From the IMG/VR virus record IMGVR_UViG_3300050821_006531: 61,319 bases of DNA; one strand, 5' to 3'. The position numbers were made by a program, and so were the translations under genes. The stretch's first letter is position 1. Each line of letters begins with the position of its first letter. This stretch comes from a virus. Of this stretch, positions 1 through 61,319 are shown piece by piece. Below the pieces are notes generated by a model, which was not told the DNA's origin, made no database searches, and saw nothing but the letters and a program-made list of their open reading frames with translations.

Positions 1-150
1 CCAGGGCGCGTACCTCCAGGGCGCGTACCTCCGGGGCGCATACCTCCAGGGCGCGTACCTCCAGGGCGCGTACCTCCGGGGCGCATACCTCCAGGGCGCG
101 TACCTCCAGGGCGCGTACCTCCGGGGCGCGGACCTCCAGGGCGCGAAGGG
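1..150. repeat. 15-nt tandem repeat in a 45-nt super-period; this is the coding repeat of the pentapeptide gene
   Basis: Units ccagggcgcgtacct / ccggggcgcatacct are arranged AAB AAB AAC. Nt 1-37 are identical to nt 61283-61319. Confidence 0.95.
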
Positions 151-406
151 CATCACGCCCAAGGTGCTACAAATCGGCGGGTCAAGGGACTGGGTAATCG
201 TGCACAAGTACGGTCAAGTGCAAATTGGCTGCATGCAGGAAACACTTGAGTGGTGGGAAGATCACTACCGGGCGGTGGGAAGGAAGGAAGATTACACGGC
301 GGAAGAGGTGGAAGAGTACAGGGAACACATTGCAGCGTGTAGGAGGTTTATGGAGCGGTACGGGTTGTTGGTCGAACCAGCGGCAGAGCCGACGATGCCG
401 TGCTAG
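2..406 (+). CDS. Pentapeptide-repeat protein, C-terminal part; continues the ORF that leaves the window at 61319
   Basis: Frame 2 reads (QGAYL/RGAYL)n from nt 2, then GITPKVLQIGGSRDWVIVHKYGQVQIGCMQETLEWWEDHY..., with the stop at 404-406. There is no start codon at this edge. Confidence 0.85.
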   Translation, partial: QGAYLQGAYLRGAYLQGAYLQGAYLRGAYLQGAYLQGAYLRGADLQGAKGITPKVLQIGGSRDWVIVHKYGQVQIGCMQETLEWWEDHYRAVGRKEDYTAEEVEEYREHIAACRRFMERYGLLVEPAAEPTMPC

Positions 407-1362
407 TCCCCGCGCTTCTCCCACCCCCGCCTACACCCCGGCCTGTTTACACGCCAGACACCGTGGCCGCAGCTACAATAGCCAGCTTTGCCAGTGCCTC
501 AACACGTCGCAACTACAGCCGTGAGGTTGCCAGCTTCCTGACATTTGCCCGGTCCCGAGGCCCGGATGGGGGTAGAACGAGCCGAGATGGGGTCGGAGGT
601 AGTCTGGGTCCCCCCACCAGGGACAACGTAATGGCGTTTGTCGCAGCAAAACGCGAACAAGGGGCGAAAACGCAGACGTTAGCGGTGTCGATCGCCGCTG
701 TGAAAGCGTTCGCGCGGGAGTGCTGGGCTCGCGGGCTGCTGAGCGAGTTCGAGTACGTCGGCGTCGAGCGGCTCAGAGTCGAGCGCCAGCGCGGCGGCAC
801 GGTCGGCAATTGGCTCGACACGGAAGGGCTTGAGCGGCTGCTCCGCGCGGCCGGCACCACACTACACCCAGCGCGCGACCAAGCGCTCGTAGCTGTAATG
901 GTTGGCTGCGGGCTCAGACGCGCCGAAGTATGCGGGCTTGAGTGGGAACAGCTACGCCAGCGCGATAGCCGGTGGTGCCTGACGGACATACGCTCGAAAG
1001 CTCAGCGGGTCCGTACGGTGGCCGTGCCGGGGTGGGTCGCCCAGTACTTGCACGAGTACAGGCCCGAGGGCGCAGTCGGCAGCATGTTCCACGTAAAGCC
1101 GGGCCGGGTACACCAGCTACTACACGCACTGTGCATCAAGTGCGGCATGGAACCAATTGCCCCGCACGACCTGCGACGGACGTACGCGCGGCTGTGCCGG
1201 GCCGGGGGTGCAAGCCTCGAACACATCAGCAACCAGTTGGGTCACGCAAGCATTGCAGTGACTGAGCGGTATTTGGGGAGTGCGTTGGAGTTAAGGCCGG
1301 GGCTGGCGGCGGGCGACTACATACCTGTGCCAGACCCCAACCAGGAACAAGAAAGTGAGTAA
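400..1362 (+). CDS. int: Tyrosine recombinase / phage integrase
   Basis: The C-terminal catalytic region reads ...CGLRRAEV...HDLRRTYARLCRAGGASLEHISNQLGHASIAVTERYL (R..HxxR..Y). The N-terminus looks like a SAM-like domain. GTG start. Confidence 0.9.
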   Translation: MLVPALLPPPPTPRPVYTPDTVAAATIASFASASTRRNYSREVASFLTFARSRGPDGGRTSRDGVGGSLGPPTRDNVMAFVAAKREQGAKTQTLAVSIAAVKAFARECWARGLLSEFEYVGVERLRVERQRGGTVGNWLDTEGLERLLRAAGTTLHPARDQALVAVMVGCGLRRAEVCGLEWEQLRQRDSRWCLTDIRSKAQRVRTVAVPGWVAQYLHEYRPEGAVGSMFHVKPGRVHQLLHALCIKCGMEPIAPHDLRRTYARLCRAGGASLEHISNQLGHASIAVTERYLGSALELRPGLAAGDYIPVPDPNQEQESE

Positions 1363-7773: not shown

Positions 7774-7977
7774 ATGAGTAGACCTCTTAGAATCCCATGG
7801 TCCGCACTGGCTGAGTGCATAGCCGAGCGTGAATACTTGAAAGAAACTGTCAGGGAGTTGACGGAGGTGCTACGCCGAGCCAGCGGCTATCTGGTATTGA
7901 TGCCTAGCGAGGAGTTTGCGCAATTACGGGCGGACGCCAGCGCCGCCATCCTCAAGGGAGAGCAGGCAACGAAATGA
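7774..7977 (+). CDS. Hypothetical protein
   Basis: A 67-aa ORF, ATGA-coupled to the next gene. Confidence 0.5.
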   Translation: MSRPLRIPWSALAECIAEREYLKETVRELTEVLRRASGYLVLMPSEEFAQLRADASAAILKGEQATK

Positions 7978-8243
7978 GCGAATACACAAAAGGACCTTGG
8001 TCCGTGGAGTGTATGTGGTTCGTCAGAACGGATGGATGCACGATAGCTGAGGTTCGTAGCGCCAACACGCCAATCGGGGCGGCGAATGCGCAGTTGATAT
8101 CGGCGGCTCCTGATCTGGTGGAGGCGCTGCAAGATGCTGTCCGCCTGCTGGATCGTGCGCCTATGATCTACCCGTACAATAACGAATCAGACGATGTGCG
8201 CGTCAAGGCCCGCGCCGCGCTCAAGAAGGCAGGTGTGCTGTGA
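7974..8243 (+). CDS. Hypothetical phage protein (KGPW...ANAQLISAAPDLVEAL type)
   Basis: I recognise the motif KGPW...NAxLIxAAPDLxEAL from many small phage proteins. Its function is unknown. Confidence 0.6.
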   Translation: MSEYTKGPWSVECMWFVRTDGCTIAEVRSANTPIGAANAQLISAAPDLVEALQDAVRLLDRAPMIYPYNNESDDVRVKARAALKKAGVL

Positions 8244-8464
8244 CAGAGCGAATGAAGCAGTCCATATCGGCATCCGCCAGTCCACGCACGGACAAACAAC
8301 GTCTCGACTGGTGGGAGAAACAGAAGGGCTGGGTTTCGTGGCGAAACAAATCGTGGCGGTGGGTCGGGCACCTCGAACTGGTTCCATTAAAGGTCGATAA
8401 GTCGTGGCCGACCTTTGAAACCGCCCGTGAAGCCATAGATTGGGCGATGGAGCATGACAAATGA
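8240..8464 (+). CDS. Hypothetical protein
   Basis: A 74-aa ORF, translationally coupled. Confidence 0.5.
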   Translation: MTERMKQSISASASPRTDKQRLDWWEKQKGWVSWRNKSWRWVGHLELVPLKVDKSWPTFETAREAIDWAMEHDK

Positions 8465-8682
8465 AAAAGCGGAAAACAATACCCAAGTACATTCTTCGAG
8501 CCTGCCGAGGGCGACTTGGCGTAGAGGACAATGATAACGACATATCGAGGGATGCGGATATATTGGCAATGCCGCCGCGTAAAATCGTGGAACTGTACTA
8601 TGGGTGGACGCTCGGCGACGGATCTTGGAGCGATAGCATCATTGACGTAATCAACGCGGTATATGGAATCAAACTTAAATGA
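8461..8682 (+). CDS. Hypothetical protein
   Basis: A 73-aa ORF with ATGA coupling at both ends. Confidence 0.5.
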   Translation: MKKRKTIPKYILRACRGRLGVEDNDNDISRDADILAMPPRKIVELYYGWTLGDGSWSDSIIDVINAVYGIKLK

Positions 8683-8861
8683 AACAACCCAAGCCCAAGC
8701 GCCCGATAAAGAGCGTGGGCAAGTTGGCGTTTATACACACCGACGAGATTTACTTGGAGCGCGGTTTAGGACCGAAGTTGGCCGATGTTGAGCGAGCATT
8801 CCACGCTGGCTACCGCGCCGCACAGCGTGACGCACGCCGGGGAGTGAGGAGGCCACGATGA
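8679..8861 (+). CDS. Hypothetical protein
   Basis: A 60-aa ORF, ATGA-coupled. Confidence 0.45.
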   Translation: MKQPKPKRPIKSVGKLAFIHTDEIYLERGLGPKLADVERAFHAGYRAAQRDARRGVRRPR

Positions 8862-8998
8862 GCGACCCACGAAATCCAAAACGTCCCGATGGGGAAGCTG
8901 GTAGCAACTGGGTGCGTTGCCGGGATTGCGGGCGCGAGGCTCGCAAGATCGTGGCGATACGCCACCGGAAGTCCTGCCGAGCGAGGAGACCGCGATGA
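8858..8998 (+). CDS. Hypothetical 46-aa CxxC mini-protein (below the track length cut-off)
   Basis: My own reading: MSDPRNPKRPDGEAGSNWVRCRDCGREARKIVAIRHRKSCRARRPR. ATGA overlaps at both ends keep the coupling chain unbroken. Confidence 0.4.
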   Translation: MSDPRNPKRPDGEAGSNWVRCRDCGREARKIVAIRHRKSCRARRPR

Positions 8999-9183
8999 GT
9001 AAGGCGCTAATCCATGCCGCCGATCCCACGCGCACCGGTAGAAAAACAGTAACCGCGCTGTGCGGCAAACGGGTGTCCGTAAAGTACGTGTTGTCATCGG
9101 ATCGGTGGAAGCCGGATGATTACCCGTGCCTTGAATGTCGGAAAGAGGTTGTCCGCCGAAGGGGTAATCGGGTTGAAATATGA
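8995..9183 (+). CDS. Hypothetical zinc-ribbon-like protein
   Basis: The start is moved to the ATG at 8995 (ATGA overlap). Reads MSKALIHAAD...ALCGKR...CLECRKE. Confidence 0.5.
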   Translation: MSKALIHAADPTRTGRKTVTALCGKRVSVKYVLSSDRWKPDDYPCLECRKEVVRRRGNRVEI

Positions 9184-9392
9184 TCAACATCGCTGAAGCC
9201 ATCGAGCGGCTGAGCACCCGAACATACAGGTGGGATGATCCACAGCTTTGCTTGGATGTCTCTGCGCTCATCGCCGAAGTGAAGCGGCTCTCGGCTCCAG
9301 TAGCGGGGAGTTACGAAAAGGCCAAACGCGCGGCGTGCAAGTCGTGCGCTGAGGGGTTGCCATACTCAAGGGAATTATATACATGAGTACAG

Positions 9393-9518
9393 TTAGCCTT
9401 TCTTTGCATCGCGTTGCGCCTTTCGCTTCGCGCGCTTTTTCGCGGCCTTCGCCTTGGCGGGCGGTTTGTATGCAAGCACTACGTCAGTTATCGTGTCTAA
9501 CTGCTTGGGTGTGCTCAT
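9393..9518 (-). CDS. Possible 41-aa Lys-rich ORF inside the IS
   Basis: My own reading: MSTPKQLDTITDVVLAYKPPAKAKAAKKRAKRKAQRDAKKG. It has a TGATG overlap with the upstream stop and GAGGAGG upstream, and ends inside the IS inverted repeat. Confidence 0.3.
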   Translation of the reverse strand: MSTPKQLDTITDVVLAYKPPAKAKAAKKRAKRKAQRDAKKG

Positions 9519-10261
9519 CAATCCTCCTCACCGTCGAAGCATATACACGGAGTCTGCACCACTTCAGGGAACAGCCCACGTTGGGTCTCGGAATTCTTTA
9601 CAAGTTCTTCCCAGGACCAGTGTCGTCCAAGCCCCTTAATGGCGGTAAGCCCAACTGCTGCGCGTTCCATCGCTACAGCACGCGCGAAGAGATCGGGGTG
9701 TTCAACACTCAACTGGATAACCTCGGTCTTCTTAGAGGCTGGACAAAAGAAGCAAGCACTCTTTACCGGAATCGGCAATTGAGCGCGATTCAGGGCGGCA
9801 ATACATGCGTCACGATCCCAGCCCCAATCAATCAACGGGTGCCAGTACTTTATGCTCTCAGTATCAAAATTCTTGCCCACTCTTCGCGTCTCTCCCGCAT
9901 CGATACCCACAGCCATTGTGACTTCGCCCCAAGAACGAATGAATTTGTTGATAGGGCGTCGCTTATATTTGTCCGAGCAGGAGCGCCATCCGAAAACAAG
10001 AGAAGGCATCGTATTTCGCGTAAGGCAATCGCGTTCCAGCGTGCGATGGATACCGTCATTGGAAACGATTGTGATCGGCGGAAAGCCCCACTGCGCAAGC
10101 CATCCGACCATCTGATTCAGAAACGTGTATGTCTCCGGTTTCTCGCCGCCAGTATCCGCAAACAGAATGGCTTGTGGATAGACATTCCGCTCCTGCATCC
10201 CCACCAACATAGCGGCGGAGTTTACACCCCCGCCGAAGGAAGCGATAAGGGGGATACTCAC
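9518..10261 (-). CDS. PAPS-reductase / PP-loop ATP-pyrophosphatase family protein (IS passenger)
   Basis: PP-loop SFGGGVNSAAML, then ILFADTGGEKPETYTF and a C-terminal CFFCP. The start overlaps the transposase stop by 4 nt. Confidence 0.8.
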   Translation of the reverse strand: MSIPLIASFGGGVNSAAMLVGMQERNVYPQAILFADTGGEKPETYTFLNQMVGWLAQWGFPPITIVSNDGIHRTLERDCLTRNTMPSLVFGWRSCSDKYKRRPINKFIRSWGEVTMAVGIDAGETRRVGKNFDTESIKYWHPLIDWGWDRDACIAALNRAQLPIPVKSACFFCPASKKTEVIQLSVEHPDLFARAVAMERAAVGLTAIKGLGRHWSWEELVKNSETQRGLFPEVVQTPCICFDGEED

Positions 10262-11193
10262 GCCGACACCTTGGCAATGAGCCGAGCATATGTGAGGCGC
10301 TTGCCGACAATGGCGTCAATGAACGAATCCAGCCGTTCAAACGTGTGGCGAGCGACGTTGCCTTCGTTCAGCCGCCACGTGAACTCATTGACGTACCGGG
10401 TGAGATGCTTCGGGGACGCATGATGGTAAACACCATGCAGCCCGCGTTTCAGGACCGCCCAAACGCTCTCGATGCTATTGGTGTGCGCCGCGCCCTTCCT
10501 GTACTCGCCAGCGCTGTGATTGACCGAATCGTGCGAGTAGAACAGCCCGTCCAGGTCTTGAAAGAGAACGTGTTCGTCGGTGTAGATCTGCGTGCCAGTC
10601 TCGACGTTCGCAAAGATCTGATCGTTCACCGACTGAAGCGAGCGGATCGGCGTGACCTTGGCGATGGTGCGCCCGCCGCGCTCCCGCATTCCGAGAACGG
10701 TTTGCTTGCCGACCGAGCCGCGTCCGGCGTGGAGTTTCTTGTGCTCATGCTTGTTGCCTTCCAGACCGCCAACGAAGCATTCGTCGATCTCGACGATGCC
10801 TTTCAACTTGTCGATGGAATCGGGCGTGCTGCACGCCTCACGGAGCCGTCCGAGGATGAACCACGCCGTCTTCTGCGTGACGCCGATTTCCTTCGCCAGT
10901 TGCATCGAACTGATCCCCTTGCGCGCCGTGACGAGCAGATACATGGCGTAGACCCATTTGTGGAGCGGAACCTTGGACCGCTCGAACACCGTGCCGGTAC
11001 GGATCGTGAAATCGAAGTTGCAGGCGTTGCAGTGGTAGAAGCCGATCCGGGTCCGGGTGCTGATCGCCGCCGATTTGCAATCGGGGCAGACCGGCCCGTT
11101 CGGCCACAATCGGCCTTCGAGGTACAGCCGCGCCGACTCCTGATCCGGGAACATCTCGAAGAGTTTGAAAGTGCTGATGGTGCTCTTACTCAT
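10258..11193 (-). CDS. IS1595-family DDE transposase
   Basis: N-terminal zinc ribbon CPDC...CNAC, then KWVYAMYLL...GISSMQLAKEIGVTQKTAW, IVEIDECFVGG, IYTDEH and NSIESVWAVLKR. Confidence 0.9.
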   Translation of the reverse strand: MSKSTISTFKLFEMFPDQESARLYLEGRLWPNGPVCPDCKSAAISTRTRIGFYHCNACNFDFTIRTGTVFERSKVPLHKWVYAMYLLVTARKGISSMQLAKEIGVTQKTAWFILGRLREACSTPDSIDKLKGIVEIDECFVGGLEGNKHEHKKLHAGRGSVGKQTVLGMRERGGRTIAKVTPIRSLQSVNDQIFANVETGTQIYTDEHVLFQDLDGLFYSHDSVNHSAGEYRKGAAHTNSIESVWAVLKRGLHGVYHHASPKHLTRYVNEFTWRLNEGNVARHTFERLDSFIDAIVGKRLTYARLIAKVSA

Positions 11194-11410
11194 GTTTCAA
11201 TTGTAGCTGAGTACAGAGCCGTTGTCAACTGTACTCATGTATATAATTCCCATACTCAAGTCACGACCAGTATCATTGGACCGGGAAGGATAATGCACCG
11301 GCCTGCACCGCCCCCACACGCGAGCAATATGAAGCAGCGCTGCTGTGGAGAATCGCCGAACTGGAGCGCCAGCGCGATCAGACCATCCGCAGGATTGAGG
11401 AGCTGACCCG

Positions 11411-11773
11411 ATGAGCCCATTCGAACAGGCAGCGATCGAAGCATTGACGGACCTTGAAGGTAGCGCCCTGTGGCATAACCGTCACGGAAGGACTAGCAGC
11501 TCGTTGTCGTGGGCTCTGGCGATTCGAGTGAAGTTGGATGCCTTGCTAAAGTTGGTCAGGCAGGAGCCGTCGCGCATCGCCGAACTCGAATCTGAGAACG
11601 CGCGGCTCCGCGACCTCATCAGCAACGGACCGGCAGCGAGTTGCACCGTCCACGAAGGACATGACTACGACGCTCAAGGCGTTTGCGTGCGTGGGTGTGG
11701 AATACCAGAGGATGGATTCGCCCACGGATTGCAGCGGCAGGTTGCGCGGCTCCGCGCGGCGGTGGAGCAGTAA
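11411..11773 (+). CDS. Hypothetical protein
   Basis: A 120-aa ORF whose ATG overlaps the stop of the restored upstream gene. Confidence 0.6.
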   Translation: MSPFEQAAIEALTDLEGSALWHNRHGRTSSSLSWALAIRVKLDALLKLVRQEPSRIAELESENARLRDLISNGPAASCTVHEGHDYDAQGVCVRGCGIPEDGFAHGLQRQVARLRAAVEQ

Positions 11774-28584: not shown

Positions 28585-28674
28585 GGGTGTCAGGCAGATA
28601 CGGTTAGCTGCGTTGGTCTGTAAAACCAATGGCCCTAGATGGTCTTGCGAGTTCGAATCTCGTGGCACCCACCA
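28585..28674 (+). tRNA. tRNA-Tyr (anticodon GTA), class II with a long variable arm; CCA encoded
   Basis: Hand-folded. Acceptor gggtgtc/ggcaccc; D stem gcag/ctgc; anticodon stem ttggt/accaa with loop ctGTAaa; 17-nt variable arm; T arm gcgag-ttcgaat-ctcgt. Confidence 0.9.
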
Positions 28675-60951: not shown

Positions 60952-61319
60952 GTTTTGAAATTCTACATCGCCACACAAAAGCCGTACTCTACACGAGCGC
61001 GACGGCAACGGAAGTCTTGAGTGCTTTAACTGAGGCTGTAAGGGCGGGCGCGAACCTCCAGGGCGCGGACCTCCAGGACGCGTACTTCCGGGGCGCGTAC
61101 CTCCGGGGCGCGGACCTCCGGGACGCGTACCTCCGGGGCGCGAACCTCCGGGGCGCGGACCTCCGGAGCGCATGCCTCCAGGACGCATGCCTCCAGGGCG
61201 CGGACCTCCGGGGCGCATACCTCCAGGGCGCATACCTCCAGGACGCATACCTCCAGGGCGCGTACCTCCGGGGCGCATACCTCCAGGGCGCGTACCTCCA
61301 GGGCGCGTACCTCCGGGGC
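60948..61319 (+). CDS. Pentapeptide-repeat protein, N-terminal part; runs off the window and continues at nt 2
   Basis: MSFEILHRHTKAVLYTSATATEVLSALTEAVRAGANLQGADLQDAYFRGAYLRGADL... No stop before the window end. Confidence 0.85.
   Translation, partial: MSFEILHRHTKAVLYTSATATEVLSALTEAVRAGANLQGADLQDAYFRGAYLRGADLRDAYLRGANLRGADLRSACLQDACLQGADLRGAYLQGAYLQDAYLQGAYLRGAYLQGAYLQGAYLRG
61050..61319. repeat. 15-nt coding tandem repeat, more diverged 5' and near-identical 3'
   Basis: About 18 units of the form cc(a/g)gg(g/a)cgc(g/a)(t/g/a)acct, merging into the repeat at 1-150. Confidence 0.9.

Follow-up and report, generated by a model that had tools for sequence, protein, structure and literature searches.

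The window analyzed here is the whole stretch of 61,319 nucleotides of the IMG/VR virus record IMGVR_UViG_3300050821_006531. At positions 9370-11251 it contains an IS1595-family element of 1882 bp that is bounded by perfect terminal inverted repeats and was found to be a three-gene operon on the minus strand, in which the stop and start codons of neighbouring genes overlap. The initial annotation of this locus had treated the element as a plain insertion sequence (IS); it is an IS, but not a plain one, and two further minus-strand genes (9518-10261 and 9393-9518) had been missed. On the evidence set out below, we consider it very probable that 9370-11251 is a transporter insertion sequence of the IS1595 family that transposed into a 114-codon open reading frame (ORF) belonging to the early region of an approximately 61-kb temperate phage.

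Organization of the element

The inverted repeats are 25 nt long, both by a repeat finder and by direct reading. The repeat distal to the transposase (IRR; 9370-9394, plus strand) reads GGGAATTATATACATGAGTACAGTT and its innermost three bases form the stop codon of the small ORF described below, while the repeat adjoining the transposase (IRL; 11227-11251, minus strand) is its reverse complement. These repeats had been annotated as perfect and 24 bp long; the perfection holds, and each repeat is longer by one base. With one transposase gene, one repeat pair and no further copy of the 25-nt repeat in the window (fuzzy search, up to six mismatches), a composite transposon was ruled out.

The 10-bp direct repeat catactcaag reported previously is present at 9361-9370 and 11251-11260, and the exact direct repeat extends to 11 nt (CCATACTCAAG; 9360-9370 and 11250-11260). 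Since it overlaps the inverted repeat at either end, the boundary between repeat and duplication is ambiguous from the window alone. Read with 25-nt repeats and with the related insertions discussed below, the target-site duplication is the 8-bp sequence ATACTCAA, with its left copy at 9362-9369 and its right copy at 11252-11259. A full-length transposase gene enclosed by a perfect 25-nt inverted repeat, next to which lies an exact direct repeat of 8 nt or more, is not an arrangement that arises by chance.

The transposase gene (10258-11193, minus strand) is intact and encodes 311 amino acids in a single ORF with no programmed frameshift. Its product matches PF12762 (DDE_Tnp_IS1595) with an E-value of 1.4e-41 over the full profile (positions 1-153 of 153). 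It also matches PF12760, the zinc ribbon of IS1595, at residues 16-59 (E-value 5.9e-10) and scores 198 bits against NCBIfam NF033547, for which the cut-off is 75, in agreement with the initial annotation of an intact IS1595-family transposase. The zinc ribbon spans C36-C58, with CPDC at 36 and CNAC at 55, and its cysteines are conserved in comparison with three full-length relatives, as are D137, D206, E242 and K249. The transposase is predicted to be active.

A near-consensus promoter, TTGACA-17 nt-TACAAT, is located at 11200-11228 on the minus strand, where it agrees with 11 of the 12 consensus positions and begins inside the proximal inverted repeat. The same promoter is conserved in relatives of the element. 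As the ATG of the transposase begins 7 nt after the -10 box, this arrangement suggests that the transposase is translated from a leaderless mRNA.

The passenger gene (9518-10261, minus strand) follows the transposase and its GTG start codon overlaps the transposase stop codon (GTGA). It encodes a PP-loop protein of 247 amino acids resembling phosphoadenosine phosphosulfate (PAPS) reductases, with matches to PF01507 (PAPS_reduct) and to phrog_424, annotated as "phosphoadenosine phosphosulfate reductase" (E-value 1.2e-37). More than 2000 homologues were found, the closest being P0003 at 85% identity, for which no genomic context is recorded. Two homologues, at 53-58% identity, were examined: in phage-like contigs with no transposase nearby, each is an ordinary gene oriented like its neighbours, and one of these overlaps a UvrD helicase gene. 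A sequence search of the PDB with the passenger gave no match. Phage PAPS reductases have been discussed as homologues of DndC/SspD and as anti-defence candidates; they cluster in anti-defence hotspots, and one was reported to help a phage evade Dnd (PMC13551039). From its phage-type homologues and these reports, a role of the passenger in DNA modification or counter-defence is a reasonable inference.

The third gene (9393-9518, minus strand) encodes a conserved basic protein of 41 amino acids, MSTPKQLDTITDVVLAYKPPAKAKAAKKRAKRKAQRDAKKG. One base is common to its ATG and the passenger's stop codon (TGATG), and the ORF itself ends at a stop codon inside the distal repeat. A small ORF of 41-45 amino acids also adjoins the distal repeat in relatives of the element such as L049, L009, L079, L036 and L045, and the consensus of the protein is ..PKELDxIADVVLxY[KR]PPxKAKAxKRREKRKxKRxAKKG. 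All 23 distinct intact copies are open with no indels across the last 36 codons, and differences at the third codon position (15.5) are about twice as frequent as those at the first (7.9) and second (7.4). Both the open copies and the excess at third positions indicate that the 41-amino-acid ORF is a real gene. The protein has 17 unnamed homologues of 40-60 amino acids in the protein collection searched, with no family match and no name in any source. Its very basic tail makes a DNA-binding accessory or regulatory factor one of the options for its function. Elements of the IS1595 family are described as carrying a single gene, and the protein may be an unrecognised IS-associated accessory protein.

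Promoter-like sequences facing outward were also observed at the ends of the element. A weak site agreeing with 9 of 12 positions lies across the right junction (11247-11276, plus strand); its -35-like part (TTCCCA) falls in the tip of the IS and its -10-like part (TATCAT) in phage DNA. The inverted repeat itself places an outward-facing TATAAT 4 bp from each tip. Such sites could restore transcription of the downstream phage genes.

The interrupted gene and the phage

The element separates two parts of a phage ORF on the plus strand. The 5' part (9180-9369) has an ATG that overlaps the upstream stop codon (ATGA, 9180-9183), and its reading frame now ends at 9384-9386 to give 68 amino acids. 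The 3' part (11260-11414) has no start codon of its own and its stop codon overlaps the next ATG (ATGA, 11411-11414). Joining 9180-9370 to 11261-11414, or equally 9180-9369 to 11260-11414, gives 345 nt, that is 114 codons and a stop. Both the in-frame ORF of 114 codons and the restored stop codon with the same ATGA overlap as in the neighbouring genes are thus as first described. In the restored frame, the GC content of the right fragment by codon position is 0.66/0.47/0.71, compared with 0.66/0.48/0.68 in the next gene. By codon usage, this frame outscores the other two forward frames and is tied with one reverse-strand frame, and no in-frame start codon was found in the right fragment after the stop at 11244. 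As the halves join in frame, the right half resembles its neighbours in coding signature and phage genes surround the site in the window, the insertion into a phage gene proposed initially is upheld; coding pattern and frame make it very probable that the two halves were formerly one gene. The restored protein has no match to a Pfam or PHROG family and its gene is, by the protein searches described here, an ORFan. The neighbouring gene, of 297 amino acids, has no relatives among the viral contigs.

Among the products encoded in the window are a DNA polymerase, portal, major head protein, helicase, VapE-like protein and adaptor protein. A tyrosine integrase is encoded at 400-1362 (plus strand), and one tRNA-Tyr at 28585-28674 (plus strand). 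The phage is temperate, and this gives a simple route to the acquisition of an IS during lysogeny. The two ends of the window (1-145 and 61046-61319) belong to one array of a 15-bp tandem repeat, CCAGGGCGCGTACCT, with approximately 28 units in total; the assembly is therefore read as a circle of about 61.2 kb broken within the array, and the window is probably the complete genome of a temperate phage. The element adds 3.1% to this genome, which lies within the packaging tolerance of 105-106% given in PMC3429520.

The phage and its insertion recur at 100% identity in four other assemblies, which come from three pipelines (two Logan runs, one ENA record and one JGI record), and the exact transposase sequence is recorded only in this phage context. 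Nucleotide searches with the element and 15 kb of its flanks gave no match among GenBank phages or PLSDB plasmids, and Rfam gave nothing in the window.

Related elements and their cargo

Relatives of the element were sought by scanning public collections for the terminal 22-24-mer. This sequence was found in three IMG/VR viral contigs, in three contigs of metagenome-assembled genomes (MAGs), two of them Bryobacterales and one Phycisphaerales, and in 89 contig stretches from soil and peat metagenomes. The full-length relatives have transposases with 76-78% identity to the one in the window and share its order of parts, namely IRL with the promoter, transposase, cargo, small ORF and IRR, with a different cargo in each. 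The cargo is a C5 DNA methylase of 384 amino acids in L049 (element at 7838-10135), two proteins of 173 and 65 amino acids with no assigned function in L079 (5340-7548) and a protein of 187 amino acids, also with no assigned function, in L009. Among the four full-length elements, three show a 4-nt overlap of the cargo start codon with the transposase stop codon; in L049 the start comes directly after the stop. The transposases of L049 and L079 are 96.5% identical in amino acids while their cargo is unrelated, so the cargo turns over faster than the transposase diverges. Exchange of cargo in this slot by recombination in the conserved flanks would be the simplest idea.

Dozens of relatives have the same ends of 23-25 nt and 8-bp duplications but no transposase. 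Their cargo includes C5 DNA methylases (L011 and L086), an N4/N6 DNA methylase (L025), PAPS-reductase-like proteins (L035, L036 and L045), a radical-SAM protein (L057) and a protein of 219 amino acids with no family match, in which an HD motif was seen on reading (L055). Small elements of 183-581 bp, among L018-L087, mostly contain one ORF of 54-180 amino acids, several of them with a visible Shine-Dalgarno sequence, and Pfam scans of ten of these small cassette proteins gave essentially nothing. By their gene content, the transposase-less cassettes resemble mobile insertion cassettes rather than non-coding miniature inverted-repeat transposable elements. Two minimal elements consist of the two repeats back to back, L073 (377-425, 49 bp) and L083 (4504-4556, 53 bp). 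The perfect 8-bp duplication around L073 suggests that the ends alone are enough for mobilisation.

A related phage, with 60-70% amino-acid identity in structural genes, has two decayed copies of the element. The decayed relatives (L002, 2370-4090; L004, 4420-7258; L001, 9070 to the end; IMG/VR 3300009177_000030 and 3300025941_000520) have lost the proximal repeat and the 5' end of the transposase, and their cargo and small ORF are intact. One copy has an N4/N6 methylase as cargo, and the other has a TGT-like protein (phrog_887) together with a PAPS-reductase-like protein. Judged from these remnants, it looks like cargo was retained after the element had been immobilised.

The element L010 (706-1910, 1205 bp) has the same ends and is found in a Bryobacterales MAG on a contig of 2.56 Mb, that is a bacterial chromosome. 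Here the IS1595 transposase is replaced by frameshifted ORFs that look TnpB-like on reading alone, and the duplication has a 1-nt mismatch. Genes flanking the relatives include phage genes for helicases, methylases, HNH endonucleases, integrases, Gam and endolysin, and also genes of defence islands (AIPR, Z1 and ABC-3C) and ordinary chromosomal genes. A family confined to phages was ruled out by these mixed flanks and by the copy in the 2.56-Mb contig.

Alternative explanations and proposed role

The length of the target-site duplication was judged on 31 independent insertions of related elements with both ends present. An exact 8-bp duplication was found outside the GGG...CCC tips, that is with 25-nt repeats, in 24 of them and two fit 9 bp, the remainder being mispaired or rearranged ends. 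The base outside GGAATT is G in 30 of the 31 insertions, and that outside AATTCC is C in 29. Insertion targets are 80% A+T with the pattern NWWNNWWN, in which positions 2, 3, 6 and 7 are nearly always A or T. A lineage that truly makes 10-bp duplications with 24-nt repeats, as an atypical IS1595 variant, would fit the window alone just as well as 25-nt repeats with 8 bp, but these counts make it a very improbable one, and with 24-nt ends no 10-bp repeat was found among the flanks listed except that of this phage. The duplication in the window is accordingly the 8 bp ATACTCAA and not the 10 bp given in the initial annotation. The additional matches, a C and a G, are explained by a target that by chance read C-ATACTCAA-G beside the G...C ends; on the pattern of the related insertions, the apparent 10-bp duplication is a coincidence and its true length is the 8 bp normal for the IS1595 family (PMC8101967). 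That an assembler joined a bacterial IS to phage sequence is hardly credible. The window is a metagenome-type contig and IS-like repeats are a common cause of chimeras, but an exact target duplication with flanks that rejoin into an ORF would not result from a chimera, and the identical junctions in the Logan, ENA (with MEGAHIT-style k141 contig names) and JGI assemblies exclude misassembly. It is very unlikely that the flanking fragments were never one gene, the element having landed in non-coding DNA or between two short ORFs with no relation to each other, in which case the halves would join in frame by accident. The restored protein has no homologue beyond its own truncation and no Pfam or PHROG family, as this explanation would have it, and by our estimate 51 codons would be open by chance in the correct one of three frames in about 5% of cases, a low figure that still cannot be neglected. 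Such an accident does not account for the right fragment, which lacks an in-frame start beyond the 11244 stop, shows the pattern of its neighbours at all three codon positions in the restored frame and ends in the ATGA coupling common to operon neighbours.

Several observations weigh against the reading of the locus as a transporter IS within a former phage gene. The restored 114-amino-acid protein matched only its own 68-amino-acid truncated form among 5.8 billion proteins. The empty site, for which the synthetic junction would read GGGGTTGCCATACTCAAGTCACGACCAG, was absent both from viral contigs, scanned for an exact 27-mer, and from metagenome and genome contigs, scanned for a 36-mer with codon degeneracy. 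With no empty site and no uninterrupted homologue, what speaks for a single gene is the unbroken frame, the ATGA overlap and coding statistics taken over only 51 codons. No identical second copy of the IS turned up anywhere and the closest other transposase is 78% identical, so nothing points directly to present activity or to a donor. The functions given to the cargo and to the small ORF are predictions. These results also bear on the age of the insertion, which the initial annotation had called very recent. This was not demonstrated: neither an empty site nor identical copies elsewhere, either of which would point to recent activity, were found in the collections, and all five assemblies contain the insertion. 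It is possible, though on balance doubtful, that the insertion is instead old and fixed and that the phage keeps the element for a benefit from the passenger, perhaps also from the small protein; selection or too little time for decay, and not a very recent jump, would then explain why repeats and genes are intact. Such an age would agree with the insertion in every assembly, with the lack of an empty site in any collection searched and with the related phage described above, where the intact cargo and small ORF of two decayed relatives indicate that such cargo persists in this phage lineage. It agrees less well with a duplication and two 25-nt repeats that are all perfect, with a full-length transposase and with a 3' target fragment whose codon bias is preserved and which, despite having no start of its own, is still free of stop codons and frameshifts. 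Over up to 7 kb the five assemblies show 100% identity, so one clone was sampled and they carry little information on age.

Regarded as a transporter IS in a former phage gene, the element can be compared with several known systems. A zinc ribbon is present in all IS1595 subgroups except IS1016, and GG tips are typical of the family. Such tips are also stated for the related Merlin elements (PMC8101967). In so far as the IS1595 family (Siguier, Gagnevin & Chandler 2009) is summarised in PMC8101967, the element shares with it a DDE_Tnp_IS1595 domain, an N-terminal zinc ribbon, the single unshifted transposase ORF, the 8-bp target duplication and terminal repeats starting with GG (here GGGAATT), and differs from it in carrying two extra genes. 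Every defining feature of the family that could be tested by sequence is present. As no annotated "IS1595 family transposase" on a plasmid exceeds 43% amino-acid identity to its own, the element represents a new IS. It may be ISNwi1-like, a subgroup of ISfinder that combines a DDE-K transposase having a zinc finger with ends of the form ggnnatTAT.

Transporter IS, that is IS copies with passenger genes, were first defined in the IS1595 family, according to the citation in PMC3129680. The element was assigned to this class by the PAPS-reductase-like passenger inside its repeats: a transposase and a passenger unrelated to transposition lie in one repeat pair, with one duplication around the 1882 bp. 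It differs from the class in three respects. The passenger occupies a fixed slot with overlapping codons between the transposase and a conserved small ORF; nearly identical transposases (L049 and L079) occur with unrelated cargo; and the cargo is a candidate DNA-modification gene of phage type instead of a resistance or metabolic gene. Many of the relatives, being a repeat pair around one or two genes with no transposase, are like the mobile insertion cassettes exemplified by MIC231 of the IS231 family in Bacillus cereus (PMC3129680), and their 8-bp duplications suggest that they are presumably mobilised in trans. In contrast to MIC231, they belong to another IS family and occur in soil and peat metagenomes, phage contigs and MAGs of Bryobacterales and Phycisphaerales, with cargo that consists mostly of DNA methylases, PAPS-reductase-like proteins and small uncharacterised proteins.

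As with the transposases of Stx prophages (PMC8136144), the IS is found in a phage that encodes an integrase, for which acquisition during lysogeny is the simplest route. The phage in this case is an environmental one, and the IS1595 family is nearly absent from GenBank phages: transposase-family matches were found in five of 50,697 phage records, at no more than 36% identity, and in 466 of 72,556 plasmids, none above 43%. An earlier survey found 92% of phages without any IS (PMC3429520), and both figures bear out the initial remark that IS are rare in phages. What appears unusual in this case is the phage location and the apparent cargo specialisation of the family.

By analogy with the family, the DDE transposase would bind the 25-nt terminal inverted repeats and join the element to an AT-rich target cut in a staggered manner, with 8 bp between the cuts, gap repair yielding the duplication ATACTCAA. 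The promoter in the transposase-proximal repeat would then drive the transposase, followed by the cargo slot and the 41-amino-acid protein. The insertion shortens the target protein to 68 amino acids, and the phage evidently tolerates it.

The TGT-like phage family includes DpdA, and the recognisable cargo of the relatives comprises C5 and N4/N6 methylases, DndC-like PAPS reductases, the TGT-like protein and the radical-SAM protein. We tentatively propose, as a reasonable but by no means settled reading of these sequences, that the element belongs to an undescribed IS1595 lineage that serves soil phages and their hosts as a system for shuttling genes. Its chassis may consist of a promoter-bearing 25-nt repeat, a transposase, a swappable cargo slot, the 41-amino-acid accessory protein and a second repeat. 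The system may also include the many transposase-less single-gene cassettes with the same ends, with Bryobacterales (Acidobacteriota) among the carriers. Recognisable cargo may be mostly of the DNA-modification or candidate counter-defence type, and phages may keep it after the transposase has decayed.

IS being scarce in phages, a complete temperate phage with a structurally intact one offers a useful example from nature; it shows that a phage can carry a transposon together with the cargo of that transposon. The process itself is known; the case is of note for its passenger, its cargo slot, its small protein and the related cassettes in phages. The same ends were found around changing genes of the DNA-modification type in phages, defence islands and chromosomes, and these shared ends with varying cargo suggest a transposon-based route by which phages may gain and exchange counter-defence genes.

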